Shown here piece by piece: positions 7,332 to 49,034 of a stretch of DNA of 64,000 nt (its first letter is position 1; each line of letters starts with the position of its first letter). The notes under the pieces were generated by a model. The model was not told where the DNA came from, did not search any database, and saw only the letters and a program-made list of their open reading frames with translations. The stretch covers positions 9,456-73,455 of IMG/VR virus record IMGVR_UViG_3300032326_000853. The stretch is one strand, 5' to 3'. The position numbers were made by a program, and so were the translations under genes. This DNA comes from a virus.

Positions 7332-8189
7332 TTGCTGGTAAGTACAACGATGACACCTTTGACACCTTACCAGCAACGTTACGGTCTTCCCGTTCCAACT
7401 CCTGAAGCAACAGCCAATGGATTTATAACGAATCTTTTAAAAAGAACTTCGTGTCGTAAGTTCCAGAATAGACCACTTGAACCAGGAGTGCTAGAATTAT
7501 TAATCGCTGCCGCACAAAGCGCACCTACCAGTGGTATGTTGCAAACATGGAGTGTAATTGCATTAACGACTCCCGAAGAAAAAGCCAAGCTGTTCAATTT
7601 TAAGAACAATGATCTAGTCATTGGCAATATTGATAGTCACAACACTGTTGCAATCAATTCATCGTCGGTGACTCTGATCTGGCTTGCTGACTTATCTAGA
7701 TTAGATCTAGTATTAAAAAACGTTGAAGCGTCTGACAAAATAAAAGCACAAGTTACGCGAGCAGAATATCATCTTAAAGCAATAATTGATGCAACTATTG
7801 CGGCACAAACCTTCTTTATGGCTGCAGAGACCATGGGCATCGAAGGTACATACTGTGGAGCAATAAGACAACTTCCAATAGAATTTTTTGAGCGTGAGTT
7901 TAATTTACCAAAGTATACATTTCCAGTATTTGGAACAGTACACGGGTATTCGGATAATGCAAAAACTATTGTTAAACCAAGACTACCATCAGAAATTGTA
8001 CTACATCATGGTACATACAATAAAATGGAAGACCTGAGTCAGCTCGATGAATACAACAAAGTACACACACAGAGATCAAAACCTGATCAAGGCACGTTCG
8101 AAAAGCGAGTAGTTGAAAGATTGAGACCAACTCTAAGTAAAGAAAGTGTAGGTGACGCATTGCGCCACATGGGCTTTGACTTTAAATAA
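7332..8189 (+). CDS. Oxygen-insensitive NADPH nitroreductase, NfsA-like
   Basis: LLKRTSCRKF N-terminal motif. The C-terminal stretch 'LPKYTFPVFGTVHGYSDNAKTIVKPRLPSEIVLHHGTY' aligns with NfsA 'LPQHVLPLFGLCLGWPADNPDLKPRLPASILVHENSY'. Confidence 0.75.
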   Translation: MLVSTTMTPLTPYQQRYGLPVPTPEATANGFITNLLKRTSCRKFQNRPLEPGVLELLIAAAQSAPTSGMLQTWSVIALTTPEEKAKLFNFKNNDLVIGNIDSHNTVAINSSSVTLIWLADLSRLDLVLKNVEASDKIKAQVTRAEYHLKAIIDATIAAQTFFMAAETMGIEGTYCGAIRQLPIEFFEREFNLPKYTFPVFGTVHGYSDNAKTIVKPRLPSEIVLHHGTYNKMEDLSQLDEYNKVHTQRSKPDQGTFEKRVVERLRPTLSKESVGDALRHMGFDFK

Positions 8190-8198
8190 GGAATTATA

Positions 8199-8564
8199 AT
8201 GGAAACGCAAGAACCAAAACACTTCATACGCTTCTGTGTTGAACGAGAATTAACTGATAGCGAATTTGAAGACATGACTGAAATTGTTGACGATGAAATC
8301 GGTGATTTAGTTGCCGCTGACGAAGTATTTGAGCATCCTGGACCAGATGACACAATTTGCTATATGTTTCAATTGACTCGCGACATAGACGTTACAGATG
8401 GTGACATTGTGAGTTATGAAATATCAAACGCCTGGCCCGAATCTTTACAGTGGGAATTGGAAGCAAGTCATTCAGATCTAGACCTAGACGTTGCTGATGA
8501 TGCAACACCCGAGCAGGTTGAAGAAGCTGCCATCAATTACTTTCGCAATATCCTTAAAGGGTAA
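8199..8564 (+). CDS. Hypothetical acidic protein
   Basis: ORF with RBS. Asp/Glu-rich. Confidence 0.35.
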   Translation: METQEPKHFIRFCVERELTDSEFEDMTEIVDDEIGDLVAADEVFEHPGPDDTICYMFQLTRDIDVTDGDIVSYEISNAWPESLQWELEASHSDLDLDVADDATPEQVEEAAINYFRNILKG

Positions 8565-9022
8565 TGAAGTACACGCCTGCATCATTGCGCTTGTTGGGCT
8601 ACACAAGGCGGAGTTCGCACTGGCAAGACTTTGTGACCAAGACCATGGCAACATGGTACAGGTTCAGTCCAGATCACTCTGTTAGCCATTTTGCTTGGGT
8701 CAATAATCCGCACCATAGAAACACACAAGGCACTACCCATGGCGGCGCACTAATGACCTACATGGACTATTGTATGAGCGCACATGTGTGGGACTTGTCA
8801 GGGGGCAAGGCTGCATACACCATGGAGTTAAACAATAGGTTCATTCGTCCTGCACGTATCACACGTTGGCTCTTTGCTGAAGTTCGACACGTTATGGTTG
8901 CAGATGTAATTGAACTAGCAGGCACAGTGAGAGCCAATGATCCAACTGGTATGCTGGTGTTAGAAAGTTTTGGGCGTTTTACTTTGCCAAAAGAGTTAAA
9001 AATCATTGACGACGACGAATAA
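8564..9022 (+). CDS. Hotdog-fold thioesterase (PaaI / 4HBT-like)
   Basis: 'THGGALMTYMDY' matches the HGG motif of PaaI-type thioesterases. Size about 150 aa. Confidence 0.55.
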   Translation: MKYTPASLRLLGYTRRSSHWQDFVTKTMATWYRFSPDHSVSHFAWVNNPHHRNTQGTTHGGALMTYMDYCMSAHVWDLSGGKAAYTMELNNRFIRPARITRWLFAEVRHVMVADVIELAGTVRANDPTGMLVLESFGRFTLPKELKIIDDDE

Positions 9023-9034
9023 GAGTGCTATACT
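9006..9034 (+). promoter_or_regulatory. Sigma70-type promoter TTGACG-17-TATACT (extended TGcTATACT)
   Basis: ttgacg at 9006-9011, 17-bp spacer, tatact at 9029-9034. Upstream of the gene at 9070. Confidence 0.5.
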
Positions 9035-9069
9035 AGTCACATACGCTAACAACAGCAACAAGGAATAAT

Positions 9070-9648
9070 ATGAAAATCAATCTACGCAAGGCCAGTGTGG
9101 TCCAGCAAACAATCTTAGACGAAATCAAGCGCCTAGGTACCGAGAGCAACACTCTCAAAGTGAGTCTATTTGAAACAGACATTGAAGCCAGACTCAACGA
9201 GCAATTGGCTCGGGTCCGTGAGAACCATGGCAAAGCAGGTAGACTGTTGAATGCAAACAAGTTCTTGCGAGCAGTTGTGGCCAAAAAGAACGCCGAAGTT
9301 GGTATCACTGACTACTTGGCTGAAGAAGCAATGTTGGCCAGTGCAGAAGCTCGCTTGAAAGCATTTAGCGAAGCCGAAGTTCGTCCAAACCTAGATGCCT
9401 TAAAGGCCGAAATCGAAAGCCGCAAAGCCAACAGCAACAGCGAACGCATGAGCATTTACGGTCGAGACTACAGCGTTGATGTCAATGTTGTACCTGTAGA
9501 GGCTGTAGAAACAGCCAAGAAAGAGCTCGAAGGCATCCGCAAGCGTCGACGCAAGATCAAGGACGAGATGGTCTCCATCAACGTTCGTACCGAGTTTGAA
9601 GTACCCGAACAGGTAGCACTTGTGCTAACTGAACTTGGGCTAGACTAA
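9070..9648 (+). CDS. Hypothetical coiled-coil protein
   Basis: AAGGAA RBS. Charged alpha-helical composition. Confidence 0.4.
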   Translation: MKINLRKASVVQQTILDEIKRLGTESNTLKVSLFETDIEARLNEQLARVRENHGKAGRLLNANKFLRAVVAKKNAEVGITDYLAEEAMLASAEARLKAFSEAEVRPNLDALKAEIESRKANSNSERMSIYGRDYSVDVNVVPVEAVETAKKELEGIRKRRRKIKDEMVSINVRTEFEVPEQVALVLTELGLD

Positions 9649-9744
9649 GACTGCCACACTTAGTCCAAGGGACCAAGGCGAAAATACATTATCGCGTTTG
9701 CGATAAACAATACTGAATTAGTCTTGAAAACTAACTCAACTAGC

Positions 9745-9797
9745 TTTGCTCAGATATAAAACAATTAAATTGATGTTTGATGATATATCTGAGCAAA
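9745..9797. promoter_or_regulatory. 13-bp perfect inverted repeat (TTTGCTCAGATAT ... ATATCTGAGCAAA) in a 180-bp intergenic region
   Basis: Arms at 9745-9757 and 9785-9797. Also a smaller hairpin TTATCGC/GCGATAA at about 9689-9708. Lies between operons. Confidence 0.5.
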
Positions 9798-9885
9798 AAG
9801 CGTATGTTTGATTTTAGATATTTGACGTTTGCTATTTGACTATTTTCGTTTCCCTTGCTTCGTGGCAATACTAAATATCTGTATG

Positions 9886-11472
9886 GCACAAATTATTATA
9901 TGCGCAGGTATTTCTTTTATAGCAACAATGCGACCCGTGGGTGCGTTTCAAATCGCAGCCGTACTCCGCAAACAAGGATACACTGTACAAGTTATTGACA
10001 ACTGGCCGCACATTGCTAAACGCGGCCCTGAAGTTGTAAAAAAAGTTCTTGATCACTTTACTACAAAAGATACACTATGGATAGGATTCAGTTCCACCTG
10101 GTTTAAAAAACTAGTTGATAGTGAAAAGGGACAACCTTACAGTCTAGCTGGCCAAGCCAGCAGTATGTATAAAAACGTAGACGATTTACTGACCAACACC
10201 TACATCTTTGATGATGCTGAACTAGCAGAGATAAAAGAATCAGTTAGATCTAAAAGTCCCAAGTGCCAATTTGTATTAGGTGGAGGCCGCGCCCCTCTTG
10301 GTAGATTGGTCAGACGACCTGGTTTCATTGACTGCTTTATCGAAGGCTTTGCTGATACCACAGCAGTAGAGTACACAAAATACATTGAGGGCAAGAATCC
10401 GTTTTTGCCCTATGTGAAAAATTCAGACGGCAGTATCAGTATTACACATGACCACAAAGCGTCAAGATTTGATTACAACAATGACAAATTTTCGTGGCAT
10501 GAAAATGATCTAGTGCGTCAGGGCGAAGCACTGCCAATGGAGATTGCACGTGGTTGTATCTTTAACTGTAATTTTTGTGCATATCCCTTAAACGGTCGTA
10601 AGAAGCTGGACTATCTTAAAGACCCTGCAATTATTCGAGCGCAGTTTGAAGAAAACTACGACAGATTCAAAACCACTCACTACTGGCTACTAGACGACAC
10701 ATTCAACGACAGTCCTGAGAAACTTCAAATTTTATATGATGAAGTATTTTCAAAGCTGTCATTTAAAATAAACTTCAATGCATTTATGCGCTTGGACCTT
10801 ATGGCAGCGCATCCGCACACAATTGATCTAATTGCCGCTAGCGGAGCAGGTGGTCTCAGCTTTGGTATTGAAACCTTAAACTACGAAGCAAATAAAAGTA
10901 TTGGTAAGGGTATCACTAAAGAAAAAATTATTGATACACTACACAAGATCAACGCCAAGATGCCGGAAGGATCCTTGATCGATTCTCAATTCATTATTGG
11001 CTTACCTTACGAGACTCCGGACACTGCTAGGGAATGGATCACAGAAGTTACTTCACCTGAGTTCCCTTTAGGCAATGCAAAGATTCATTTGCTTTCAATG
11101 CACCCGTTCAAGGGCCTTGAAAATGTTTGGATCAGTAACTTTGAAAAGTATCCAGAAAAATATGGATACACTTTTCCTAATAAGAATTTCCCATTCTCGT
11201 GGGTCAACAACATGGGATTCTCTGTCAAGCAAGCATTTGACTTGCACACTGAAATGTATGATAAAATCATGTCAAAGGAAATGGATGCATGGTTATCGTA
11301 TGCTGGTTGGCTGAATTTGGGTCTTAGCGAAGAACAGGCCAGAGAGCTGGTTTCTATCAACAAGGCCCGAAGAACCGAAAGCAGTTTGGCGGCCAGCACA
11401 AATGCATTCCATATACACGAAGCTTTTATCGACAACTATATTAATCAATTGTTAAATCTTGATCCTCAATGA
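9886..11472 (+). CDS. B12-binding-domain radical SAM enzyme (paralog of 56501..57991)
   Basis: CxxxCxxC motif 'GCIFNCNFCAYP'. N-terminal region aligns with the paralog (..YTVQVIDNW.. vs ..YNTQVIDHL..). Start chosen at 'MAQIII' by alignment. The ORF track starts earlier, at 9829. Confidence 0.7.
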   Translation, partial: AQIIICAGISFIATMRPVGAFQIAAVLRKQGYTVQVIDNWPHIAKRGPEVVKKVLDHFTTKDTLWIGFSSTWFKKLVDSEKGQPYSLAGQASSMYKNVDDLLTNTYIFDDAELAEIKESVRSKSPKCQFVLGGGRAPLGRLVRRPGFIDCFIEGFADTTAVEYTKYIEGKNPFLPYVKNSDGSISITHDHKASRFDYNNDKFSWHENDLVRQGEALPMEIARGCIFNCNFCAYPLNGRKKLDYLKDPAIIRAQFEENYDRFKTTHYWLLDDTFNDSPEKLQILYDEVFSKLSFKINFNAFMRLDLMAAHPHTIDLIAASGAGGLSFGIETLNYEANKSIGKGITKEKIIDTLHKINAKMPEGSLIDSQFIIGLPYETPDTAREWITEVTSPEFPLGNAKIHLLSMHPFKGLENVWISNFEKYPEKYGYTFPNKNFPFSWVNNMGFSVKQAFDLHTEMYDKIMSKEMDAWLSYAGWLNLGLSEEQARELVSINKARRTESSLAASTNAFHIHEAFIDNYINQLLNLDPQ

Positions 11473-12200
11473 ATGTTTGTTTTGACTTAAACTGTATCAG
11501 CGTTAAATTAACATTACCTGCTGATACTGATTATAAGAATCAACTGTTGATACAAAATGGTTATTTCGGACTATCACAGCACGCCACCAACGATGCCATA
11601 ATCGAAGCAGCCGTTAAAAACTATACCCCAATACTGGAAAGGTCATTAAAATACTTTCCAGACTTGGGTGATGTTACAGTATTAGATATAGGCAGTGGTA
11701 ATTCTATTATAGACCTGGCACTTGCAAAAATCTATCCCAACACTAGATTTATCTTGCTTGACGGCAACGAATGGAATGACAATCCCAATTTGCACAGCAC
11801 ACAGTTTAGACCCTACAACCGTTGGAGTCATGTCAATGACTCTATTAGACTCAATCAATTAGATCCCAGTCGATTTAAATTTGTAGGCTTAGACTATGAT
11901 TTCGGAGATTCAGTGCAGTATGTACTAAGCTATGGTAGTTGCGGATTGCATTATCCAGTCAACACTTATATTAATCAAATTTATAGCGCATTAGATACAA
12001 ACGGAATAATGGCACTTGGACCAATACTCAACGTTGGTTCTCAACTTGAAATCATAAACACCTTGTTTGAACCAATGGAAATTTTAGAAATAAATGGGTT
12101 TGCCAGCAGAGAACGCAATCAAATGTCAATTTGGTCCAAGTATTTCCCCAAAGACTTTGCTGGTCCATTTGCACATGCTGGAGTTTGGCGTAAATTATGA
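11469..12200 (+). CDS. Class I SAM-dependent methyltransferase
   Basis: Motif I 'VLDIGSGNS'. Overlaps the upstream stop (ATGA). Confidence 0.55.
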   Translation: MNVCFDLNCISVKLTLPADTDYKNQLLIQNGYFGLSQHATNDAIIEAAVKNYTPILERSLKYFPDLGDVTVLDIGSGNSIIDLALAKIYPNTRFILLDGNEWNDNPNLHSTQFRPYNRWSHVNDSIRLNQLDPSRFKFVGLDYDFGDSVQYVLSYGSCGLHYPVNTYINQIYSALDTNGIMALGPILNVGSQLEIINTLFEPMEILEINGFASRERNQMSIWSKYFPKDFAGPFAHAGVWRKL

Positions 12201-12363
12201 AAAAGTATTGGAGACTTGTGGCCCTGGCCCTAGGTAAAAAATCTGGCGATTCGGACAAAGAAGCTGACCAAATCGCTTGCATTAGGCTAGCAATTGTGTT
12301 AACATACATTATTACAAACTGTTTCATTGTCGCTGGAGTGATCCGGCATTGGTAGGAGCCAAT

Positions 12364-13377
12364 ATGGGTCGAGTGGGTTTTTGTTGCAAGTGGATAAATG
12401 ATCCTAGTGAAGTAGCTGGCATGAAAGTCAGTGCTGTAGACCGAGATCTAAACGGACGCTCGACTACCATGCGCTGGCTACGTGAGCACAAGGCCGAAGC
12501 CGAACAGCGTCAGTGGGACATTATGAATCACAATGCTCGTGCGGCTCTGCTGTTAGTTGAGCGTGTTGGCACACTACCCGAACATCGTCGTATGGTACGC
12601 CTGGGTTCAGAAATGCTACAAGGCTACACACACGAAGACTGGATTCCGTTTTGGAAGCAACAGGACGTACAAGATCACTGTGCAAAGATCTTTACTCCTG
12701 TAGGTGAAGCCGCACGCCGTTTAGGTGTGCGTTTGAGTTTTCACCCTGGACAGTTTTGTGTACTGGCCAGTGCCAATGAAGGCATTGTAGAGCGCAGTAT
12801 TCTAGAATTTGAATACCATGCTGATCTGGCACGTTGGATGGGCTATGGTAAGAGCTTTCAAGACTTTAAGATCAATGTACACATTTCAGGACAACAAGGA
12901 CCCGAAGGTATTAGGCGAGCATACAATCGGTTGTCACCAGAGGCTCGCAATTGCATAACTATTGAAAATGAAGAAAACTCACACAACCTTGAAACTTGCC
13001 TTGAACTTGCGGACCTTGTTCCAATCGTTCTGGACGTCCATCACCACTGGATCAATTCGGGAGAGTATATCAATCCTGACGATGTACGTGTTCAACGGGT
13101 TATTGACAGTTGGCGTGGTGTCCGCCCTGCTATGCATTACAGTGTTTCTCGCGAAGATGTACTCGTTGATCATGCCCGAGATGCCAGACCAGATATGGCC
13201 AATCTTTTATCGCTAGGCTATAAAAAGCAAAAGCTACGAGCACATTCAGACTTTTACTGGAACACAGCAGTAAATGATTGGGTGGCCACATTTGCTGATA
13301 GCTTTGATATTCAGTGTGAAAGCAAGGGCAAGAATCTTGCCAGTGGTGAATTTGCAAAATTAGTGAGTGGCCACTAA
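12364..13377 (+). CDS. uvdE: UV damage endonuclease UvdE/UVDE family
   Basis: Block matches to Bacillus UvsE: RLSFHPGQF (RTSFHPNQF), INVHISGQQGPEG (INIHIGGAYGNKD), ITIENEE (LENDDKT), VLDVHHHW (VFDFHHFY), AMHYSVS (KVHLSSP). Confidence 0.7.
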   Translation: MGRVGFCCKWINDPSEVAGMKVSAVDRDLNGRSTTMRWLREHKAEAEQRQWDIMNHNARAALLLVERVGTLPEHRRMVRLGSEMLQGYTHEDWIPFWKQQDVQDHCAKIFTPVGEAARRLGVRLSFHPGQFCVLASANEGIVERSILEFEYHADLARWMGYGKSFQDFKINVHISGQQGPEGIRRAYNRLSPEARNCITIENEENSHNLETCLELADLVPIVLDVHHHWINSGEYINPDDVRVQRVIDSWRGVRPAMHYSVSREDVLVDHARDARPDMANLLSLGYKKQKLRAHSDFYWNTAVNDWVATFADSFDIQCESKGKNLASGEFAKLVSGH

Positions 13378-13413
13378 TCTCCTTTAAAACCGTTAAAACG
13401 GGTTACATTGATG

Positions 13414-13442
13414 TTGCACCGCAACATATATAGTGTTATACT
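13414..13442 (+). promoter_or_regulatory. Promoter TTGCAC-17-TATACT with flanking small hairpins
   Basis: ttgcac at 13414-19, tatact at 13437-42. Hairpins gaaacact/agtgtttc and atgttgc/gcaacat nearby. Precedes a strong RBS 'AAAGGAGAAATAAGCATG'. Confidence 0.45.
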
Positions 13443-13528
13443 AGTGAAAACACTGATAGTGTTTCTACTAGTGATAGTGCTCATTAGAGGCTATCAAAAA
13501 CTCGCTTAACATTAAAGGAGAAATAAGC

Positions 13529-13753
13529 ATGTTCACAGAAATCACAAAAACTTTCGAAGCAAACCAAAAACTGGCCAAGGAATTGACCGCACAGTTGACA
13601 ACCGCTTCAACAGAATTCACAAAAACAATCGTAGACGTTAACACACGTTTAGCAGAAACTTTCAAAACACAAGCCGCAGAAGCTTACAAGAACTTAGAAG
13701 CATTTAAAGTTCCTGGTTTTGATGCATACACTGCAAAGTCAAGCAAGAAGTAA
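13529..13753 (+). CDS. Small helical protein (phasin/histone-like composition), probably highly expressed
   Basis: Strong SD AAAGGAG. Ala/Lys/Glu/Thr-rich, 74 aa. Confidence 0.45.
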   Translation: MFTEITKTFEANQKLAKELTAQLTTASTEFTKTIVDVNTRLAETFKTQAAEAYKNLEAFKVPGFDAYTAKSSKK

Positions 13754-14035
13754 TATCATGTGGGCTAGAATCAAAAAATTCTTTGCCTCTATGACTCGCC
13801 AGTCCTCCATGGACTGGTGGGAAGAGCAATACCTAAACGCGGCACAAAATGTCGCTGATTTAGAGTATCGCCAAAGACAACTCTCACAAGGGTTTTCTAG
13901 ATCAAAGGGATATTAAAATGAAAACATTTTTAAATGCAGTATGGGAAGTTTTGACTGAAATTGGTCGTACCAGAGCTGCCATTGCGGCAGCACGAGCCGG
14001 GCAATTTGATATAGCCAAAGCATTAATGAAATAAT

Positions 14036-14584
14036 ATGTCGGCTGTTCGCAAGGTCTTAGTTAGCGAATATCCAAAGTACCGCAAACATTTAAAAGCACT
14101 TGACGCAGAAAGCAAGTATCTGCGTTTTGGGCACCCTATTAGGGACGAAATGATTGATCAATTGTGCGATCAATTTGAAGCAGATGCAGACAAGAACATT
14201 TTATTTTGCGTAGAAAATGACAATTTGGACTTTGTCGCAGTGGGTCACATTGCACTACAAGACGAGATGGAATTGGCTTTTAGTGTATTAAAAGCCTATC
14301 AAGGGCATGGACTGGGCAACCAGCTATTCCGACGTGTTATACAATGGTGCAGGACACACAACCGACTAAAAGGTAACATGGTTTGTTTAAGCACTAATAG
14401 CGTGGTCAAGCATCTTTGTACCAAGTATGGCATACGTATGAAAAACGATGGCGGCGAAACACTTGCTTCAATTGAACTAGATCATCCCGATATCGCTACT
14501 TACTTTACCGAAGCCACTGATAGTAATCTAGCTGTTATGGATTACTTAGGCAAGCGTTTTGTACATAAACTCAAACAACACTAA
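14036..14584 (+). CDS. GNAT-family N-acetyltransferase (putative)
   Basis: 'QGHGLGNQLFRRVIQW' resembles the GNAT motif A (Q/RxxGxG/A). Confidence 0.4.
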   Translation: MSAVRKVLVSEYPKYRKHLKALDAESKYLRFGHPIRDEMIDQLCDQFEADADKNILFCVENDNLDFVAVGHIALQDEMELAFSVLKAYQGHGLGNQLFRRVIQWCRTHNRLKGNMVCLSTNSVVKHLCTKYGIRMKNDGGETLASIELDHPDIATYFTEATDSNLAVMDYLGKRFVHKLKQH

Positions 14585-14619
14585 TCAAAGCCTTCGCTAA
14601 ATACAGTGAGGGCTTTTTC

Positions 14620-14814
14620 ATGAAGATTAGAGAATTAACAGAAGCATCGGGTTATATTGCCAGAAATGCCAAAGAAGCAAAAGATCCGCGCTGGAGTACA
14701 AGTTTAACAGTTGATGTTAAAACTGATACAATGCGTAAGCAATTGTCTGCGTTCTTTCCTACATCTGCACCCGAAGACGGCCAAACACAAATTAAAGAGA
14801 ACAGTTCAAAATGA
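14620..14814 (+). CDS. Small protein with N-terminal MKIRELTE motif
   Basis: RBS present. The N-terminal motif is shared with other proteins in the window. Confidence 0.4.
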   Translation: MKIRELTEASGYIARNAKEAKDPRWSTSLTVDVKTDTMRKQLSAFFPTSAPEDGQTQIKENSSK

Positions 14815-15212
14815 GCAAACAATTAAACGAAGGCTTGGGTAGCCTTAACGTAGAAGAACAATATGACGTTAGTCGTATTCAGCAGTTGGCAGGTATTGCC
14901 AATGCTTCAACTGTAGCAGGTACTCCTGTTGCTGAAGATATCAATGACGATATCAGCAATGAAGAAGCTCGTGAACTTGCTGGTCAATTAGAGACGCTAG
15001 TGCATGCCTTGGACAACGCCTTAGGCGATATTGAACATTTAATTCGTACCAAGCTGCCAAGAGAATATCGTTCATTAGAACACTACACATTAGCACATAT
15101 CAAGGCTGGCATTGGCGGCTATGGCTATGCTGAAAACCGTATGGCAAAATCCTTGCATGGTTTGGTAGAAGATTTAATTGACTACAGCGAAGGCGACGAA
15201 GATACATTATGA
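14811..15212 (+). CDS. Hypothetical acidic protein
   Basis: Overlapping ATGA start. Asp/Glu-rich. Confidence 0.4.
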   Translation: MSKQLNEGLGSLNVEEQYDVSRIQQLAGIANASTVAGTPVAEDINDDISNEEARELAGQLETLVHALDNALGDIEHLIRTKLPREYRSLEHYTLAHIKAGIGGYGYAENRMAKSLHGLVEDLIDYSEGDEDTL

Positions 15213-15496
15213 AACAGTACCGCGTCACTTCTGAAATGATCAACCCCAAGGGCAATGATCCAACAGTGCCTGATGCGTATATAGATCCTGATGAGCTGGC
15301 AAGGATCACGGCCCTGTCAGGTATTCCCAACCTGTGGTCAGCTAATGTTCCCGAATCCTCTAGCCCAGTTGATGGTTCAGTAGGCACTGAAAAAGGCAAG
15401 TATCAACGTGATAACAATATAACACCAGGATCAGCTGCCTGGTTTAGACTTTGGTTTAGTTTACCTTTCTTAACAGGAGAGAAGTCGCGTGAATAA
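15209..15496 (+). CDS. Hypothetical protein
   Basis: Overlapping start (ATGA). Confidence 0.35.
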   Translation: MKQYRVTSEMINPKGNDPTVPDAYIDPDELARITALSGIPNLWSANVPESSSPVDGSVGTEKGKYQRDNNITPGSAAWFRLWFSLPFLTGEKSRE

Positions 15497-15658
15497 ATGT
15501 AAGCCTGGTTGCCCTTGTGGCTGCGAGCTTGATGGCCGCGAATGTAGATGCCACGATGTTGAGCCCTTAAAAGAGCCGGAACCAAATCCCAATCAGTATC
15601 CAGTCTACCCCGAAGATGACGGGTATGATCTTCCTAGAAATCCCTACAGCCAAGTGTA
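15488..15658 (+). CDS. Small Cys-rich peptide (CKPGCPCGCELDGRECRCH), GTG start
   Basis: 56-codon ORF not in the ORF track. GGAGAG lies 7 nt upstream of the GTG. Eight Cys in the first 22 residues. Fills the gap to the next gene exactly. Confidence 0.3.
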
Positions 15659-16382: not shown

Positions 16383-17294
16383 ATGAAAAAACTCATTTCA
16401 ATCTTTCTTATGGCCTTGGCATTTGGTGCACAGGCTAAAGAAACAATCACTATCGTTTATGCATGGGGTCCAGGTGACTCTGTTGCCAACTACCATCGTA
16501 CTATTGCTAACGAAGCAAACAAGATCCAAGACAAGTACAACTTTATCTTTGATACCAAACCAGGTGCTGGTGGCGCGATTGCCGCTAACCATGTTTTAAA
16601 TACACCAGCAAACATTTTGGCACACAGCACAGCATTCTTTGTTCGTCCTGTTGTATTCCCAAATGAAAGCTATGACTTGACCAAGTACAAAGAGCAGTAT
16701 GTTCACTGTATGGCTCCTATGGCTGTGACATCTACCAAGTACAAGACTGTCAAAGACGTACCTGCCAACGCTTCTGTTGGTATTAGTGGATTGGGTGTTA
16801 CAACTCACTTGGCCGCTATTGAATTACAAAAGCGTTACCCACAGTTGAACATTGTCCCTTTTAAGTCAACAAACGATAGTATGTTGAGCATGGTATCTGG
16901 ACAGACTGATTTGCACATTGGCTTTATTTCAGAAGCCGAACAGTGGAGCAAAGAAAATGCCCGTGCAGAGCGTAAAGTCACTGTACTAGGTATTACAGGT
17001 AACAAAGTTGTTAATGGATATACACCATTGGTACGCCAGGGTTTTGATGCCAGTTTTGCTGACATGAACGTTGGCCATCATATGTTGTTGCCAGTCACAG
17101 TTGACGAAGCCAAGCGCAAAGAATTCCACGAAATCTTTGCTCGTGCAGCCAAGACCGATGCAGTACGTGCGGCCTATGCTGTTGACTATTGCGAGCCACA
17201 AACTATTGCTTATGATGGATTAGACAAGTTCTTTGCTTTCCACACAGCATACTGGAAGAAATTGGCTTCTGCTGTCAAGCTGGATACTAAATAA
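16383..17294 (+). CDS. Periplasmic solute-binding protein, Bug/TctC-like (tripartite tricarboxylate receptor family), with signal peptide
   Basis: Signal peptide MKKLISIFLMALAFGAQA. 'KPGAGGAIAANHV' matches TctC 'MPGGVGAVAYNAI'. About 300 aa. Paralog of the next gene. Confidence 0.45.
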   Translation: MKKLISIFLMALAFGAQAKETITIVYAWGPGDSVANYHRTIANEANKIQDKYNFIFDTKPGAGGAIAANHVLNTPANILAHSTAFFVRPVVFPNESYDLTKYKEQYVHCMAPMAVTSTKYKTVKDVPANASVGISGLGVTTHLAAIELQKRYPQLNIVPFKSTNDSMLSMVSGQTDLHIGFISEAEQWSKENARAERKVTVLGITGNKVVNGYTPLVRQGFDASFADMNVGHHMLLPVTVDEAKRKEFHEIFARAAKTDAVRAAYAVDYCEPQTIAYDGLDKFFAFHTAYWKKLASAVKLDTK

Positions 17295-17491
17295 TTTTAG
17301 TAAAGAACCCACCTTAGGGCCGTTTGTCGCTACGGAAAAAGGCGTCCGCGCAATTGAACTGCACCGCGTAGTGTGCGCCGTATAAAGTAAGCGGCACCTA
17401 CTAAACTACCACTAAAGTGCTATACTAACAAAAAGTATAGTTCATAAATTACTATGAGCAACATTAGTTGCAATTTTAAATTAGGTAATTT

Positions 17492-18412
17492 ATGAAGAAA
17501 ATTATTTCTATGTTGTTGCTTTTGGCTTGCATGTCAAGTGCATGGGCTAAAGAAACAATTACAGTAGTATATGCATTTACTGTAAGTGATACTATGGCAA
17601 ATTATAGCAGAACGCTAATTGAAGAAGCCAACAAAGCACAAGACAAATATGTTTTTGTATTAGAAGCAAAACCAGGCGCTGGTGGTAGTATTGCGTCCCG
17701 ACATGTTGCAAACACACCAAATACTATTTTAGCAACGTCTGGTGCGTTTTTTGTACGCCCAAACTTCTTTCCAAATGAAAGTCACAAATTAGAAGACTTT
17801 AGAGAGTTGTTGGTTCAAAGTTCTGCTCCAATGAGTGCTTCCAGTGTAAAGTACAAGTCGTGGAAAGAAATCCCAGCTGATGCCCCCATTAACATTGGTG
17901 TAAGCGGCCTTGGTGTTGTTAGTCACTTGTCTGCTGTGCAAATTAAAACCAAATTCCCAAATGCAACAATTGTTCCATTTAAATCAACCACAGACGCATT
18001 GTTATCTATGTTAGGCGGCAACTTAGACATTGCAATCGGCTTTATGGGCGAGCAAGAAAAATGGTCTGACCAAAAAACTCCAGATGGTAAGAGTGTGACA
18101 ATTTTAGGTATCACTGGTCCCAAGAGTGTTAACGGTCGCCCAACTTATGTAAGTGCTGGTTTCCCGCAAGTGTTTACTAAAATGAATAACCCTAATCATT
18201 TAGTTGTTCCCAAGACAATGCCAGAAGCACAGTTCAAAGAGTTGCGAGAGATCCTTTACAAAGCTTCTAAGGCTAAAACAGTGACACAATCATATGAAGT
18301 TGACTTTGGATCTGCAGCCGACGTATCAACTGCCAAATTGGACGCTTGGTATGCTGAACAAGCCGAACACTGGGCAAAAGTAAGTGAGGTAGCCAAGGCA
18401 CAAATGAAATAA
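17492..18412 (+). CDS. Second Bug/TctC-like solute-binding protein (tandem paralog)
   Basis: Signal peptide MKKIISMLLLLACMSSAWA. Shared 'KETIT(I/V)VYA', 'KPGAGG(A/S)IA..HV', 'VPFKST.D' with 16383..17294. Confidence 0.45.
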   Translation: MKKIISMLLLLACMSSAWAKETITVVYAFTVSDTMANYSRTLIEEANKAQDKYVFVLEAKPGAGGSIASRHVANTPNTILATSGAFFVRPNFFPNESHKLEDFRELLVQSSAPMSASSVKYKSWKEIPADAPINIGVSGLGVVSHLSAVQIKTKFPNATIVPFKSTTDALLSMLGGNLDIAIGFMGEQEKWSDQKTPDGKSVTILGITGPKSVNGRPTYVSAGFPQVFTKMNNPNHLVVPKTMPEAQFKELREILYKASKAKTVTQSYEVDFGSAADVSTAKLDAWYAEQAEHWAKVSEVAKAQMK

Positions 18413-18562
18413 AATGTGCCCCAATTATACCAGTGTTTTAAACAACATATAAACGGCTAAATATTGGGCAAACTACAGGGAGTTTCTCTGTAGTTAAGCT
18501 AAATATATACGAGCCGAATGCTCACAACTTAGCTGAATGCTAATAAAAAGGAAATTTTTGTC

Positions 18563-19507
18563 ATGACAACAAAATTAACTTGGGTTCTAGCCCACGAGCC
18601 GTACGATCTATTCTTACGTGCCGCTGAAAAATTCTCAAAAGAAGTCAGCGAAAAAACTAACGGTGCTTTCGAAATCGAAATTCTTGGTATCCAAGAATAT
18701 GCTGCCAAGTACAACGGTGGCGTAGCTATTGATAACCGTTTTGGTCTATTAGACCTATTGGAGAGCGGTGCTGTTCAAATGAGCCAAATGTACACAACTA
18801 CATTGGGTCAATTGAGCCAGGACATGTTCGTCCTAGACTTGCCTTTCTTGTTTGAAGGCCACGACCACGCTGAGCGTGTGTTAGACGGTGCAGTTGGTCA
18901 ACAACTATTCGCTAAACTAGCCGAAGAGTCAAATGTTAAGGGCTTGGCCTTTACATACTCTGGTGGTTTCCGTATCATCCCAGCAACAGAAGCAGTTGAG
19001 AACTTAGAGTCTCTACGTGGCATGCGTGTTCGCGTTCCAGCATCTCCAGTTGCCAAGGACACATTCGAAGCTATCGGTGCAGTTCCAGTTGAAATGGCTA
19101 TTGAAGATCTAGCTGGTGCTTTGGCTGCTAAGACAGTTGACGCTGGTGAATCTACATACCCACGTATCTATGGTATGCAACAAGCTCAACACGCTGCCAG
19201 CATCGCTCACAGCGAGCACAGCTTGTTCTTGACATCATTGATCATCAACAAGACATTGTGGAACAGTTTAGACACAGCTACTCAGCAAGTTTTTGCTGAC
19301 GCCGCTTTGGCTGCTGCTCGTATCGAGCGTCAAGAGTCTATCGAAGACATCGCATTGACACAAGCTCGTGCTGTTAACGAAGGTATCAACGTTGTTCACT
19401 TCTCCGCAGAAGACAAGGCAGCTTTCAAAGCCGCTACTGCTCCTTTGCATGTTAAGTACGATAGCGTATTCACTTCTGGCCTAATCGGTCAAATCAAATC
19501 TGCTTAA
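18563..19507 (+). CDS. TRAP-transporter DctP-like solute-binding protein lacking a signal peptide
   Basis: 'KLTWVLAHEPYDLFLRAAEKFSKEVSEKTNGAFEIEI' matches the DctP N-terminal consensus (..LAH..P......AAEKFAELV.EKTNG...I.V). Begins MTTKLTW with no hydrophobic leader. Confidence 0.5.
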   Translation: MTTKLTWVLAHEPYDLFLRAAEKFSKEVSEKTNGAFEIEILGIQEYAAKYNGGVAIDNRFGLLDLLESGAVQMSQMYTTTLGQLSQDMFVLDLPFLFEGHDHAERVLDGAVGQQLFAKLAEESNVKGLAFTYSGGFRIIPATEAVENLESLRGMRVRVPASPVAKDTFEAIGAVPVEMAIEDLAGALAAKTVDAGESTYPRIYGMQQAQHAASIAHSEHSLFLTSLIINKTLWNSLDTATQQVFADAALAAARIERQESIEDIALTQARAVNEGINVVHFSAEDKAAFKAATAPLHVKYDSVFTSGLIGQIKSA

Positions 19508-19523
19508 TTTTTAAGTAAGTTAA

Positions 19524-19552
19524 GGGTACAACTTCGGTTGTACCCTTTTTTC
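19524..19552 (+). terminator. Rho-independent terminator (GGGTACAAC-TTCG-GTTGTACCC-TTTTTT)
   Basis: Perfect 9-bp stem, 4-nt loop, T6 tail directly after the stop at 19507. Confidence 0.8.
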
Positions 19553-19923: not shown

Positions 19924-20313
19924 ATGAGTATGCATTTAGAAGGTCCATGGCTCAGTACCACTGGCAAGCGCAAAGGCAAGAAAAAGTTTGCAAGTGCAGA
20001 GCAAGCAAGAAAGGCCCGTGAACTAGATGCTGAGTGGCTGGAACTACAAAAGCGTTGGGGAGTAGACGCAGACGATAAAAAGCGCCGACGTGCCCTTGCC
20101 GCAGAGCCGTATATTGCCCCTAAACCCATGCATCGTGGTGCTGAACAGGCTCGTATCCCAAGTTTAAATAGTGGTGCCGGAGTTGCAACAGTGGCGGCTC
20201 CGAAGGTATATACAGGTACAATGGTAAAAGGTATTGCTACAATGCACAAGTCAAATGCTGTTCCTGTTTTCAGTGATGAGCAGGCTGTAGATATTAGCAG
20301 GATGCGTAGATAA
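19924..20313 (+). CDS. Hypothetical basic protein
   Basis: Lys/Arg-rich N-terminus (GKRKGKKKF). Confidence 0.4.
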   Translation: MSMHLEGPWLSTTGKRKGKKKFASAEQARKARELDAEWLELQKRWGVDADDKKRRRALAAEPYIAPKPMHRGAEQARIPSLNSGAGVATVAAPKVYTGTMVKGIATMHKSNAVPVFSDEQAVDISRMRR

Positions 20314-20460: not shown

Positions 20461-20772
20461 ATGAAAACTAAACTTTTAATTGCTGTGGTTGCGCTGTTGG
20501 CCTTGAGTGGATGTGCTACTCGTACAGGCACTGCAATTGTAGCAGGCACTGCTGGCATGGTCATTGGTAACGCAATGGCTCAACCCCGAGCAGTTGTTGT
20601 ACGTGAAGTTCCAGTTGTTGCACCTGAGCGAGTAATTATTGTCAACAATGCATGTGCCCAATACCATACTCACAGCGAGAGAAGTGCGTGTGAACGTGGT
20701 ACTCGTCAACGCTACTACGAAGAACAGCGTCGTCGAGAAAATGAAGCATATAGGCAGGGTTATGGTAGGTAA
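20461..20772 (+). CDS. Small lipoprotein
   Basis: MKTKLLIAVVALLALSGCAT contains a lipobox (LSGC). Confidence 0.5.
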   Translation: MKTKLLIAVVALLALSGCATRTGTAIVAGTAGMVIGNAMAQPRAVVVREVPVVAPERVIIVNNACAQYHTHSERSACERGTRQRYYEEQRRRENEAYRQGYGR

Positions 20773-21592
20773 GAATATTTTTGACACCTGGGGTATTGAA
20801 TACAATATCACCTTTGAGCAATTACTTGCACAAGAAAAAGCCACTTGGCAACGCATTTTAGTTGATCGTGGACTTATTGTGTTCCGCGGCCTTGGTCCCA
20901 ATTTGACCGATGCAGAATATCACTCCATTGGTGAAAAGTTTGGTCGTGTGTGGACTCAAGAAGACTACAAGCGCACCCCTACTGATACCACGATTAAACA
21001 TCGAGACACTACGCCTGTCAGCTATTTTCAAACCAACAACATGTGGGGCGCCAGGGACATGAAGTATCATGCTGACATGGCACATGTTGGAGAGAACAGT
21101 TTTCCGGCCCGAGCACTTTATATGGTGCGTGGCGCACAGAATCGCAGTGGTGAAACTTCTTGGTTAAACTTAGAAGCGGCTTGGGCACAGTTTACTCGTG
21201 AAGAAAAAGAACAGTTTAAAAACCATTTTATTGTACAACAAGACATGTACAAGCCAGGTACCAATTTGGTTAGATATCCTTTTCTAAAAGCCAATCCCAA
21301 AAGCGGAAAGTTTAGTCCGCGAGTCAACTGCTATGTCACACCTGGCAAAAATCAAGTTGCTTGGGTTCACCACGTTGAACACGATGACACGCCCGTAGAG
21401 GATTCGGGTGCATTTATTGAATCTGTGTATCAACTATGCGAAAGCAAACTCAATACTGTATATTCGCACACCTGGGATGATGGCGATTTGATTGTTTATG
21501 ATAATTGGAATTCGGTTCACAAGCGTACTGAAGTTAAACTGGCGCCTGGAGAATCTGATCGCTTGCTTAAACGATTAACTTTCAATATTTAA
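20763..21592 (+). CDS. Fe(II)/2-oxoglutarate dioxygenase, TauD/TfdA family
   Basis: 'YHADMAHVGENSFPARALYMVRGAQNRSGETSWLN' fits the TauD 'WHTD.TF...PP.G.IL.........GG.T.W'. C-terminal 'GDLIVYDNWNSVHKR' fits 'GDLVIWDNR..LH.A'. Start is ambiguous between 20742 and 20763. Confidence 0.65.
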
Positions 21593-23573: not shown

Positions 23574-23708
23574 TAATAAATTTTATAATTTTATAACAAT
23601 GCAATAAAGGGTAGTGGTAAGTGAAAGTCTAATACTGAAGTTGCTTGTAGTACTAGAGCAGGTATATTGATGCGTTCCCCCACTGTAAGTACTATACAGG
23701 GAACAAAT

Positions 23709-24398
23709 ATGAAACGAACAATTTATTTTGATACAGTAAGCAGTCAGTTCAGCGTAGACGCTAAGATTGCAATCAGTGACATTACCAACAGCACCATTGA
23801 CACTGTTGATTCGTGGCCAGCTCTTATGAGCCTGCTTTGCCAAGAATTGTGTCATGGTGAGGCGTCTGAAAATGATATTACATTAGTAATCTTTAATAAA
23901 GATACACTGTCATTTCCGGGTACTACAGTAAATGAAATTGTAGATGCACTAACAACAATTTCAACTATAGCAGGACCAAAAAAAGTAAGTGTAGGAATTT
24001 TAGTAAATGACAAATGCGAACAAAAGTTTATACAAGATTTAAAGAAAAGCAACATAAGCGGCATCGTACCAAACTATAAGAGTTTTGGAGATGCCGATTT
24101 CTTTGACGCCTTGAATACCTTACTGTCTGGAACTACGCACTGGCCCGAAGCATACATTGTGCCTAGAGTAAAGTTATCTACTAGAGCCACAGTGGAATAT
24201 GGTATTAGACTAACTGGGCGCCAAAGAGAAATCTTAGCCTTGGTGGCCAATCGCGGTTTGAGCAACAAAAAGATTGCACAGATTTTAAATATCAGCGAAA
24301 GCACTGTGAAAGTGCATATCAGTTCTATCCTAAAAGCATATGGAGTACGGAATAGGACACAGTTGGCCTTAGCCGGAAACAAAGGATTGCATGCGTGA
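23709..24398 (+). CDS. LuxR/FixJ-family HTH transcriptional regulator with uncharacterised N-terminal domain
   Basis: C-terminal GerE-type HTH 'LTGRQREILALVANRGLSNKKIAQILNISESTVKVHISSILKAYGVRNRTQLA'. The N-terminal 170 aa lack receiver-domain acid-pocket residues. Confidence 0.75.
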   Translation: MKRTIYFDTVSSQFSVDAKIAISDITNSTIDTVDSWPALMSLLCQELCHGEASENDITLVIFNKDTLSFPGTTVNEIVDALTTISTIAGPKKVSVGILVNDKCEQKFIQDLKKSNISGIVPNYKSFGDADFFDALNTLLSGTTHWPEAYIVPRVKLSTRATVEYGIRLTGRQREILALVANRGLSNKKIAQILNISESTVKVHISSILKAYGVRNRTQLALAGNKGLHA

Positions 24399-25101
24399 AA
24401 CACTGTCAGATATAGTTTATTTTTGCCCTTGGGTTTCATCTACAAAAAGTAAAAATTCACAAGCCAACGAGTTAAAGTCAATTGTCAGTGTAGCCGACAA
24501 CTTGAAACAGTTGTCAAATATTGAAGTTACTATTGCCCCAACTTGGGCCGCGCTTATTGAGCTCATGCAAGACAACAACCGAAATAACATGTTGGTGGTA
24601 TTTCGATTGGACTTCTTGGAGCGTGAAAATATGATGCTAGGCGAAGTGCTGACCATGCTGAGTTCACTGACCAAATTTGTATCCACAAAGACCATTAACA
24701 TTGCAGTGGTTGTACCCAGTGCATGTGACGCTGATTTGATTGCACAATTAAAAAGAAATGAAGTACTGGGTATTATTCCGGGCATGCGATTCTTTGATCA
24801 CAGTGACACAGTTGAAGCCTACGAGCGACTGCGTCGTGGACAAAGTCATTGGCCAGCTGTGGCAATTGAAGCACCAATGAAGCGATACGTTCGTAAGAAA
24901 AAAGGTGTAGACTTGACCAAGCGCCAAAGTGAAATCTTTGTTTTAATTGCCAAGCGTGGACTAAGCAATGCCAAGATTGCTGAGATATTGAAAATCAGCG
25001 AGTACACTGTCAAGATTCATGTTAGTGCAATTTTACGAAGGTACGGTGTTAAAAATAGAACACAACTTGCCCTGGCCAACACAACAGGCCCTATAACATA
25101 A
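24391..25101 (+). CDS. Second LuxR-family HTH regulator (tandem paralog)
   Basis: 'LTKRQSEIFVLIAKRGLSNAKIAEILKISEYTVKIHVSAILRRYGVKNRTQLALA'. Same architecture as the upstream gene. Confidence 0.75.
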   Translation: MRETLSDIVYFCPWVSSTKSKNSQANELKSIVSVADNLKQLSNIEVTIAPTWAALIELMQDNNRNNMLVVFRLDFLERENMMLGEVLTMLSSLTKFVSTKTINIAVVVPSACDADLIAQLKRNEVLGIIPGMRFFDHSDTVEAYERLRRGQSHWPAVAIEAPMKRYVRKKKGVDLTKRQSEIFVLIAKRGLSNAKIAEILKISEYTVKIHVSAILRRYGVKNRTQLALANTTGPIT

Positions 25102-33194: not shown

Positions 33195-33231
33195 TGTAGT
33201 TACCGTAAAATGCAGTTCAGGTAAATATCTG

Positions 33232-37251: not shown

Positions 37252-37731
37252 ATGAAAAAGATAACTTTAGCCTTAGCAGTGGTATTAAGTGGAGCCCCGA
37301 ATGCCGCTGAATTACAACACAATTTCAATAGTCCAGCCTTTAGTGGTGTGGGCTATTCGTCACATGTTCTAACTTTAAAACAGTTAGAAGATCAACAAAA
37401 AGACAAAAACAGACAGGCAGCAGAAGCATTAAAAGCTGCCGCTGAACGTGAGGCCGCAAATACGCCGCAAGCACGTTTTAAAGCCAGTATGGAAACTCGC
37501 ATTTATAGTGAGTTAGCCAAACGCATTAGCGATAGTCTATTTGGTTCTAGTCCAAATGCACCAACATGTACTCCAACATCAAGTGGTGGCCCATGTGGCG
37601 ATATTGACATTGGCGGTCAAAATATTACTTGGAGAATCCAAGGTACAAATATCATTGTTAGAATTTCAGAAATTGCAAATCCTAACAACTATACAGAATT
37701 AGTAATGCCTTATGCGGCATTTAACATCTAA
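37252..37731 (+). CDS. csgF: CsgF-like curli assembly protein (secreted)
   Basis: Signal peptide MKKITLALAVVLSGAPNAA. 'ELQHNFNSPAFSGVGYSSHVLTLKQLEDQ' parallels E. coli CsgF '[28 protein letters not shown]'. Size 159 aa. Confidence 0.45.
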   Translation: MKKITLALAVVLSGAPNAAELQHNFNSPAFSGVGYSSHVLTLKQLEDQQKDKNRQAAEALKAAAEREAANTPQARFKASMETRIYSELAKRISDSLFGSSPNAPTCTPTSSGGPCGDIDIGGQNITWRIQGTNIIVRISEIANPNNYTELVMPYAAFNI

Positions 37732-37741
37732 GGAAATAAAC

Positions 37742-45895: not shown

Positions 45896-45929
45896 TTGAC
45901 ACAGCCGTTAAAATGTGTTAAATTATAGT
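45896..45929 (+). promoter_or_regulatory. Promoter TTGACA-17-TAAATT(ATAGT) abutting the cyclase start codon
   Basis: ttgaca at 45896-901. ATG at 45930 with no SD, which suggests a short-leader or leaderless transcript. Confidence 0.45.
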
Positions 45930-48623: not shown

Positions 48624-49034
48624 GTGTTATATTTTGCATATGGTATGAATACCAATAGTAGCGTTATGAGCAAGACCAGCCGCAGACTAGGTCCAGCAAC
48701 CTTATTGGGTTATAAATGGGAAATGCTACAGTTTGCCAATGTGTTTGAATCTAAAGGCTGCACTGCCGTAGGCATATTATGGGACATTGATGAGACGGAG
48801 TTGCAGGACTTGGATTATCGCGAAGGCTATCCTTCATTTTACGATCGCGTTAGTGCCACAGTGGAACACCAAGGTGAACAAAAGAAAGCCTGGGTATACT
48901 ACATGACTCCGCACTATAGAACCAAGCTGTCTGATTGTGAGCCAAGCCCACATTATGCTCAAATGGTCACTGAGGGCTTTGCTCAGGATGGTTTAAGTGT
49001 TGCTAATCTTACTGCACACAAGAGTTTGATATAA
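48624..49034 (+). CDS. Gamma-glutamyl cyclotransferase-like (GGCT/AIG2 fold) protein
   Basis: N-terminal 'LYFAYGMNT' (YFAYGSNL hallmark), 'GILWDIDETELQDLDYREG', 'AWVYY'. Confidence 0.6.
   Translation: MLYFAYGMNTNSSVMSKTSRRLGPATLLGYKWEMLQFANVFESKGCTAVGILWDIDETELQDLDYREGYPSFYDRVSATVEHQGEQKKAWVYYMTPHYRTKLSDCEPSPHYAQMVTEGFAQDGLSVANLTAHKSLI

Follow-up and report, generated by a model that had tools for sequence, protein, structure and literature searches.

A 64,000-nucleotide stretch of the IMG/VR virus record IMGVR_UViG_3300032326_000853 (positions 9,456 to 73,455 of that record; hereafter the window) encodes three solute receptors of secondary-transporter families, which we call P1, P2 and P3. 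P1 and P2 are predicted secreted proteins of the TctC/Bug type, the receptors of tripartite tricarboxylate transporters (TTT), and P3 is a leaderless protein with the fold of DctP, the receptor of tripartite ATP-independent periplasmic (TRAP) transporters. An earlier note on this DNA, written from its letters alone, had described the three as orphan binding proteins. We find all three where it placed them and uphold their families, that of P3 through a strong match to PF03480 and those of P1 and P2 through a profile of their own family. The trio is not an isolated oddity but one configuration of a recurrent viral module. We regard as evenly balanced the proposition that P1–P3 are functional phage auxiliary genes of a viral carboxylate uptake-and-capture module, in which P1 and P2 would use host TctBA components and P3 would capture the carboxylate. 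The features discussed are collected in Table 1; related loci are designated by L and a number.

Table 1 Coordinates of P1–P3 and associated elements in the window
Feature	Position	Strand	Size or basis
P1, secreted divergent TctC/Bug-family (TTT) solute receptor	16383..17294	+	303 aa
Predicted Sec-type leader of P1, MKKLISIFLMALAFGAQA, cleavage expected before KE	16383..16436	+	heuristic sequence reading
Conserved intergenic element between P1 and P2	17306..17397		DNA alignment with L010 and L008
P2, secreted divergent TctC/Bug-family receptor, paralog of P1	17492..18412	+	306 aa
Predicted Sec-type leader of P2, MKKIISMLLLLACMSSAWA, cleavage expected before KE	17492..17548	+	heuristic sequence reading
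P3 translation-start region with TAG and AAGGA Shine-Dalgarno sequence	18530..18562	+	conserved in L008 and L010
P3, leaderless (predicted cytoplasmic) DctP-type TRAP-receptor-fold protein, clamp arginine R137	18563..19507	+	314 aa
Intrinsic-terminator-like hairpin (11-bp stem and T-run) closing the P3 unit	19522..19547	+	consensus scan
Empty tctCBA site: 37-bp spacer between 66-aa zinc-finger-like gene and GH19-domain gene	33195..33231		blastn/blastp of L120, L121, L124 and L136 against the window

The leaderless DctP-type protein and the secreted pair

P3 matches the Pfam DctP family (PF03480) with 182.6 bits (cut-off 23.4) and NF037995 with 145 bits (cut-off 50), and scores 147 bits against the narrower TIGR00787, under that model's cut-off of 175. 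Among PHROGs it matches only a function-unknown family, the profile of which has room for a leader. An AlphaFold2 model of P3 built on 29 clade members (pLDDT 94.9, pTM 0.91) has DctPAm, SiaP and EFI TRAP receptors as its top Foldseek matches (TM-score 0.83–0.87 over ~312–316 columns), and in this model P3 adopts the two-lobe type II binding-protein fold with a long spanning helix by which DctP proteins are recognized. The arginine R137, in the motif T-Y-S-G-G-F-R, is invariant across the 29 clade members and aligns with the G-F-R or G-S-R arginine of the solved DctPs 4p47, 4pdd and 4xfe. In the DctP family this arginine serves as a carboxylate selectivity filter. By its structural model, P3 thus has the whole fold of a DctP-type TRAP receptor and keeps the predicted carboxylate-clamp arginine.

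Two usual traits of DctP receptors are missing from P3, an extracytoplasmic signal and linkage to DctQ/DctM genes in the window. The PF03480 match runs from residue 18 of P3 onward, which corresponds to profile position 12 onward, indicating that P3 starts at the mature domain. The earlier note had called P3 leaderless and had proposed looking for an in-frame start further upstream. There is none: an in-frame TAG (18530–18532) lies 33 nt 5′ of the P3 start, an AAGGA Shine-Dalgarno sequence (18548–18552) stands 10 nt ahead of the ATG, and no hydrophobic leader is encoded in any of the three upstream frames. On the strength of the stop codon and the want of a leader-coding frame, we rejected both an upstream start and a frameshifted leader. 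With no export signal, P3 is predicted to stay in the cytoplasm.

The lack of a leader is not peculiar to P3. All 120 of its closest homologs (55–97% identity) lack one and have the N-terminal strand W-V-L-A-H-E-P-Y-D-L-F-L-R-A-A in common; a few gene calls among them run longer, but with hydrophilic residues only. Across the 120, the maximum N-terminal hydropathy is well below the range of leaders. When 1.84 billion representatives were searched exhaustively with a profile, 527 clusters matched at E<=1e-30, the best 150 of which comprise 62 leaderless full-length proteins, 69 with a leader or anchor and 19 fragments, so that leaderless proteins make up 62 of the 131 full-length representatives of the wider DctP subfamily. 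The best solved relative scores ~130 bits, compared with >180 bits within the subfamily. In a rough neighbour-joining tree P3 groups exclusively with leaderless proteins, in a clade of 20 representative clusters, and by the same rough reckoning at least seven gains or losses of the leader are needed over the 129 tips. The clade occupies at least 193 viral loci in IMG/VR. On the cellular side, a pattern-limited scan of 185,579 species, each represented by one genome, found 15 loci, all in metagenome-assembled genomes (MAGs). Five of these 15, labelled Bdellovibrionota, have a clear Sec leader, followed where readable by the motif in identical or nearly identical form, which argues that the viral leaderless state is a derived and maintained loss. 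Judged from these sequences, a large branch of DctP proteins, most of them viral, has conserved the leaderless state. Since the trait is conserved in a large clade under purifying selection (the ratio of nonsynonymous to synonymous substitution rates, dN/dS, is 0.08–0.15 for P3 against its relatives), a cytoplasmic role for P3 is strongly supported by the comparison.

P1 and P2 are 47% identical (E 5e-102) and are tandem paralogs, as the earlier note had read them. Against the Pfam TctC model PF03401 they score 20.2 and 24.5 bits, respectively, both under the 27-bit cut-off; NCBIfam has no model for either, and neither finds a match among PHROGs. A profile of the P1/P2 family (27 members) spans solved TTT receptors from end to end, with AdpC (7ndr) at E 1.7e-20 and further full-length matches to the terephthalate-binding protein TBP (~3e-17), BugD (5e-12) and Bug27. 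A single-sequence phmmer search with P2 likewise reached AdpC (1.4e-7) and BugD, and PF03401 was matched by each of the 27 family members tested (E<=0.01; best 4.7e-11). Because the family profile aligns at full length to solved receptors and every tested member matches PF03401, P1 and P2 appear from their sequences to be true, if divergent, TctC/Bug superfamily proteins. They are under purifying selection as well, with dN/dS of 0.07–0.10 (P1) and 0.05 (P2) against relatives.

Both proteins have the ~300 residues and the predicted signal peptide of extracytoplasmic TctC/Bug receptors. Their N-termini consist of a Lys-Lys n-region, a hydrophobic core and an A-x-A site followed by K-E, and the same n-h-c architecture and cleavage motif recur in 115 of 120 P1/P2 homologs, bearing out the Sec leaders that the earlier note had seen; these calls come from a heuristic of hydrophobicity and A-x-A motif rather than from SignalP. 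The L-L-A-C of P2 is not a canonical lipobox, and we rejected P2 as a lipoprotein; we infer that cleavage by signal peptidase I after A-W-A, before the lysine, is preferred.

No TctA, TctB, DctQ or DctM gene accompanies the receptors anywhere in the 64-kb window, which extends what the earlier note had said of their immediate vicinity. A hydropathy scan of all open reading frames (ORFs) found none of the four, nor any polytopic protein as large as TctA or DctM, and a six-frame scan of the 64 kb with hidden Markov models (HMMs) recovered only P1, P2 and P3, with TctA, the PP-loop enzyme family described below and DUF2061 absent. Precomputed Pfam annotation of identical or near-identical contigs, which cover ~7.5–28, 31–50 and 51–63 kb, lists no transporter membrane subunit, and none was seen on the contig carrying the right-end protein, which appears to diverge after 62943. 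Two candidates for a small membrane subunit on the minus strand were set aside as neither TctB nor DctQ: 22371–22835 matches no Pfam family and 48983–49690 encodes a fatty-acid desaturase. A secreted receptor encoded without its membrane subunits is what marks the PstS type of phage receptor, and P1 and P2, with predicted leaders and no membrane subunit in 64 kb, agree with that pattern.

Neighbourhoods of the receptors in related loci

We called, clustered and HMM-searched the ORFs of the window and 101 related loci, which had been gathered with alignments (single-sequence scans gave only near-identical contigs). The DctPs were collapsed at 90% identity into 46 groups, and genes within 300 bp were counted as directly adjacent. 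Directly adjacent to DctP are a TctC-like gene in 13 of the 46 groups, a PP-loop enzyme gene in 17 and a gene for a DUF2061 protein with two transmembrane segments in 8; within 10 kb the counts are 18 for TctC-like genes, 27 for the PP-loop enzyme and 4 for TctA, and at least one of these four partner families lies within 10 kb of DctP in 35 groups. The TctC-like family itself occupies at least 103 viral loci in IMG/VR. Anchored on TctC, a leaderless DctP is found within 5 kb in 41 of the 73 loci with a confirmed TctC-like gene (56%), 23 of the 73 have two to three TctC-like copies, and the PP-loop family is present in 50 of 77 fetched loci. Given this linkage and the multi-copy loci, orphan TctC paralogs together with a leaderless DctP are a recurrent viral configuration.

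The closest relatives show which part of the configuration is constant. In L007, L008 and L010, whose DctPs are 99–100% identical to P3, P1 and P2 are missing and a gene for a 212-aa protein is followed directly by DctP. The intergenic element found between P1 and P2 in the window occurs in the TctC-less L010 and L008 (~9760–9900) directly 3′ of the 212-aa gene, and the region upstream of DctP is common to the window, L008 and L010. With intergenic elements recurring at their edges, P1 and P2 thus behave like two independent cassettes, a pattern that resembles the modular shuffling mediated by promoters and stem-loops in T4-type phages. In this variable viral module the leaderless DctP is the part that stays constant, and the TctC pair, an indel, can be dispensed with.

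Some relatives carry membrane subunits of their own. Four sibling contigs (L120, L121, L124 and L136), which share 80–90% nucleotide identity with the window over 31.4–39.2 kb, have a 2.85-kb tctC-tctB-tctA cassette (2472–5298 in L121; Pfam TctC 27.7, TctB 48.5 and TctA 502 bits) at the site that is empty in the window. Contigs with this tctCBA cassette come from samples that also yielded the contigs with an identical DctP but no TctC genes, which suggests that the phages have alternative configurations, with either their own tctCBA or an orphan TctC pair. Elsewhere, in L048, which resembles the window in its DctP synteny, TctB-TctA-TctC lie ~6 kb downstream, and in L023, L026, L033 and L034 a TctA gene (PF01970, 222 bits) adjoins a PP-loop gene of the U410 cluster and the leaderless DctP, followed by a gene for a small leader-bearing protein.

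TRAP membrane subunits are likewise linked to DctP in some relatives (DctQ/DctM in L065, L066, L072, L081, L083, L084 and L085). Among these, L085 (5257–12418; IMGVR_UViG_3300017786_003484, a 244-kb viral contig) has a complete TRAP system and two leaderless DctPs in the order leaderless DctP paralog, 72-aa ORF, DctQ (73 bits), DctM (204 bits), leader-bearing DctP (113 bits) and leaderless DctP. Because a separate leader-bearing DctP stands directly after DctQM, the leaderless protein of L085 is not the periplasmic receptor of that system. The same locus has a gene resembling the alpha subunit of Rieske-type ring-hydroxylating oxygenases, and its 72-aa ORF looks CspA-like by eye. In L083, DUF2061, DctP and a PP-loop gene of the PP352 cluster stand in this order, with DctM and a TAXI-type receptor on the opposite strand.

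The most frequent neighbour of the leaderless DctP, the PP-loop enzyme, belongs to a family of three related clusters (U410, PP352 and PP291) with the motif S-G-G-x-D-S. Pfam has no model for it, its database homologs are all annotated as hypothetical, and PHROGs has no model for any of the partner families. Against solved structures the family profile matches in the PP-loop region only, with QueC (E 4e-4) as the sole match below E 0.001 and LarE and nitrile synthetase as weaker ones. The nearest folds to an AlphaFold2 model of P0412, a protein identical to the product of the gene directly 3′ of DctP in L083 (pLDDT 89.4), are TsnB9, carbapenam synthetase, human and E. coli asparagine synthetase (AsnB), beta-lactam synthetase and LarE. 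Enzymes of these types adenylate a substrate carboxylate. As a lead rather than a proof, a PP-loop protein of the carboxylate-adenylating type, if the model is right, would fit a neighbouring DctP that clamps carboxylates.

In the viral loci L036, L049, L052 and L055 and in the MAG contigs L088, L089, L090 and L100 (three of them labelled Bdellovibrionota), the leaderless DctP lies in an operon-like cluster with the PP-loop enzyme, a BKACE beta-keto-acid cleavage enzyme, a short-chain dehydrogenase, an AMP-binding acyl-CoA-synthetase-like enzyme and a fatty-acid desaturase. The four MAG contigs could come from cells or from large phages.

Possible roles of the three proteins

The reading that we set at even chances is the following. 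During infection P1 and P2 would build up in the host periplasm and dock onto TctBA-type components of the host, adding or retuning high-affinity uptake of one or two carboxylates in the way that PstS works with host PstCA. P3 would bind the imported carboxylate, or a related one, in the cytoplasm and serve as a sink or carrier that puts the compound out of reach of host metabolism or efflux. Where a phage has the PP-loop enzyme, P3 might pass the compound on for ATP-dependent activation of the carboxylate. The earlier note had suggested that an element supplying binding proteins alone could plug into host transporters. For P1 and P2 this is the most economical account, with PstS as its precedent by analogy; supplying receptors only, however, is not true of the lineage, in which relatives have tctCBA, tctA or dctQM.

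Several points weigh against this reading. All of its functional steps are inferred from sequence, fold and gene neighbourhood, host TctBA components are assumed, and the receptor-only statement covers this 64-kb genome segment. The TctC of the sibling cassette is only ~25% identical to P1 and P2 and belongs to a different TctC subfamily, and TctA lies within 5 kb of a gene of the P1/P2 subfamily in none of 73 viral loci, which together leave docking of this subfamily to TctA unproven. The fold matches of P0412 are remote (Foldseek E ~2e-4 to 1e-3, TM-score 0.3–0.4). Moreover, the window has no PP-loop gene in any frame, and 11 of the 46 DctP groups lack all four partner families inside 10 kb, so hand-off to the enzyme cannot be the sole function of this DctP.

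A more specific version of the capture idea, which we advance tentatively, is that a TRAP-type receptor was recruited to the cytoplasm as a ligand carrier. It would take part in a relay from a secreted receptor through a viral or host channel to DctP and on to an enzyme of the type of the AsnB synthetase domain, which would make a compound that the phage needs.

Clearly less probable than the main reading is that P3 acts apart from transport, as a cytoplasmic sponge, decoy or regulator that sequesters a metabolite or carboxylate signal (for example a defence signal) or modulates a host regulator. The earlier note had offered a cytoplasmic ligand sponge or regulator as the function of the leaderless protein. 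The cytoplasmic half of that suggestion is strongly supported by the conserved leaderlessness, whereas sponge or regulator action finds no specific support. A highly conserved, cytoplasmic Venus-flytrap fold of presumably high affinity would suit such a role, as would a single-gene unit with its own Shine-Dalgarno sequence and terminator that stands without TctC genes in near-identical relatives and, in the 11 groups just mentioned, without any partner. Yet the leaderless DctP repeatedly adjoins secreted receptors, TctA, DctQM and the PP-loop enzyme across distant phage lineages, which is hard to reconcile with a stand-alone sponge, and no known defence or anti-defence gene was seen beside P3, where no dedicated (PADLOC) search was made. 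Because of this linkage to transport genes and to an enzyme of putative carboxylate-adenylating type, we favour capture or hand-off over a sponge or regulator.

For P1 and P2, a slightly weaker contender is that they are periplasmic sensors, signalling in the Bug manner through a two-component kinase of the host, or ligand traps or blockers that starve competitors or exclude superinfecting phages. Some Bug-family receptors do signal to sensor kinases. The want of TctA near this subfamily would be expected of such proteins, as would their strong divergence from canonical TctC, below the Pfam cut-off, and the fact that both are dispensable in near-identical phages. In the Bug family, however, bug genes normally stand as orphans, with a small number of TctAB systems shared among them. 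Repeated acquisition of TctBA and TctA by the same phage lineage also speaks for selection on TTT transport as such, and PstS sets the precedent for a phage receptor with a host channel.

It is improbable that P3 is periplasmic after all, exported by a non-classical or hitch-hiking route and serving host DctQM. Its complete receptor fold with the arginine clamp and the DctQM genes near leaderless DctPs in some viral contigs would agree with such a role, but a hydrophobic N-terminal segment is found in 0 of 120 homologs, the MAG relatives keep their leader (which makes the loss specific and maintained), and L085 has a leader-bearing DctP for its DctQM in addition to two leaderless copies. Finally, although these gene families are typically bacterial and no INPHARED cultured phage has them, it is scarcely credible that P1–P3 are bacterial contamination, a misassembly or decaying passengers, and we rejected a contaminant or pseudogene origin on dN/dS (0.05–0.15), on phage synteny conserved in many independent contigs from different samples, and on a GC content that fits the phage, the ORFs, Shine-Dalgarno sequence and terminator being intact.

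The carrier phage and comparison with known systems

The earlier note had spoken of a mobile element; the carrier is, by its gene content, a lytic-type myophage of the lineage of Pelagibacter phage HTVC008M and Methylophilales phage Melnitz. The window codes for tail-fibre proteins and, at 45915–47966, for a 683-aa protein with CHASE2 and guanylate/adenylate-cyclase domains and transmembrane segments that is 41% identical to its HTVC008M and Melnitz homologs and that, from its domains, is a phage-encoded membrane sensor-cyclase. At 37252–38623 lie genes for a CsgF-like protein (weak Pfam match) and CsgG, the curli outer-membrane pore, which are typical of the pelagimyophage/Melnitz lineage (PMC7029224, PMC9004378). 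The phage curli pore has been speculated to improve uptake of larger molecules (PMC7029224), and the presence of an outer-membrane pore and periplasmic receptors in one phage is a suggestive pairing. TRAP, TTT and DctP go unmentioned in these two papers on the lineage. GC content is even over the window (0.43) and similar in P1–P3 (0.40–0.46), all of which are encoded on the plus strand in a region dense with plus-strand genes.

Among cultured phages, a megablast of the 6-kb region found no match and a translated search of INPHARED found nothing for P1; for P3 INPHARED gave only 22–36% matches to short unannotated fragments and to one Salmonella contig filed among phages. Neither P1 nor P3 has a real homolog among the INPHARED phages. 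The host may be of betaproteobacterial type, as hinted weakly by the occurrence of the clade in MAG contigs labelled Polynucleobacter or Burkholderiales and by a gene shared with Delftia and Acidovorax phages. That gene (19924–20313) encodes a 129-aa protein of PHROG 27048, which is shared with Delftia phage PhiW-14, Acidovorax phage ACP17 and a Synechococcus phage; it sits one to four genes 3′ of the leaderless DctP in 19 related loci.

Around DctP (7332–15500 and 20639–21592) the window has genes for a nitroreductase, a 4HBT thioesterase, a B12-binding radical SAM enzyme, a UvdE-type endonuclease, a GNAT acetyltransferase and a TauD-family Fe(II)/2-oxoglutarate dioxygenase; TauD accompanies the leaderless DctP in 15 related loci. 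Other metabolic genes encode an Amidoligase_2 protein (42618–44612), a GGACT (gamma-glutamyl cyclotransferase-like) protein (48624–49034) and the fatty-acid desaturase mentioned above. Two adjoining genes at 23667–25101 match sigma-70 region 4 and GerE-type helix-turn-helix families (Pfam, identical contig) and possibly encode phage sigma or transcription factors.

The nearest known counterpart of P1 and P2 is cyanophage PstS, a phage phosphate-binding protein that works with host PstCA (bioRxiv 10.1101/2021.07.20.453049). As with PstS, the phage would supply a periplasmic high-affinity receptor only and rely on a host channel; the location of the PstS gene in the hyperplastic region of a T4-like myophage counts as a further likeness. 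The systems differ in that TTT and TRAP are secondary transporters, unlike the ATP-binding cassette (ABC) transporter of PstS, and presumably handle organic carboxylates rather than phosphate. There are also two receptor paralogs here, and the cytoplasmic receptor-fold protein has no PstS counterpart.

P1 and P2 share with the Bug/TctC receptors BugD, Bug27, AdpC and TBP their length of ~300 aa, predicted signal peptide and full-length profile similarity, and such receptors typically occur as orphans apart from tctAB. They differ in scoring below the Pfam cut-off, in being virus-encoded and in the linkage of 56% of their loci to a leaderless DctP. P3, for its part, is like the DctP receptors SiaP, DctPAm and the EFI sugar-acid binders in its strong HMM match, modelled two-lobe fold (TM-score 0.87) and arginine clamp, and unlike them in the clade-wide absence of a signal peptide, the N-terminal strand motif W-V-L-A-H-E-P and the lack of DctQM in the window.

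A TTT component on viral contigs has been reported before, namely viral tctA on SUP05 viral contigs, with its role declared unknown (PMC4164917; listed in the review PMC6359870). Unlike P1–P3, that report concerns a domain match to the membrane subunit only, with no receptors, leaderless DctP or module (PMC4164917). Literature searches brought up nothing relevant on receptors of the TctC or DctP type in viruses, on a DctP clade without leaders or on TRAP receptors in the cytoplasm.

Transporter receptors encoded by phages are already known as a kind; the novelty here lies in their belonging to the TTT and TRAP families, in the pairing of two paralogs and, most of all, in a DctP predicted to be cytoplasmic. 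The nutrient receptors of phages have so far been documented essentially for phosphate (PstS). Receptors of secondary transporters are widespread in viruses, with at least 103 TTT and at least 193 TRAP loci in IMG/VR, and absent from cultured-phage collections. The leaderless branch contradicts the defining periplasmic property of TRAP receptors and gives an example, open to direct test, of a binding protein put to new use within the cell. If the relay proposed above is true, it would be the first cytoplasmic, enzyme-coupled role of a DctP and would represent a new class of viral metabolic module. The identity of the ligand would give a function to a sizeable family of PP-loop enzymes and would show which organic acid these abundant aquatic myophages compete for in infection.

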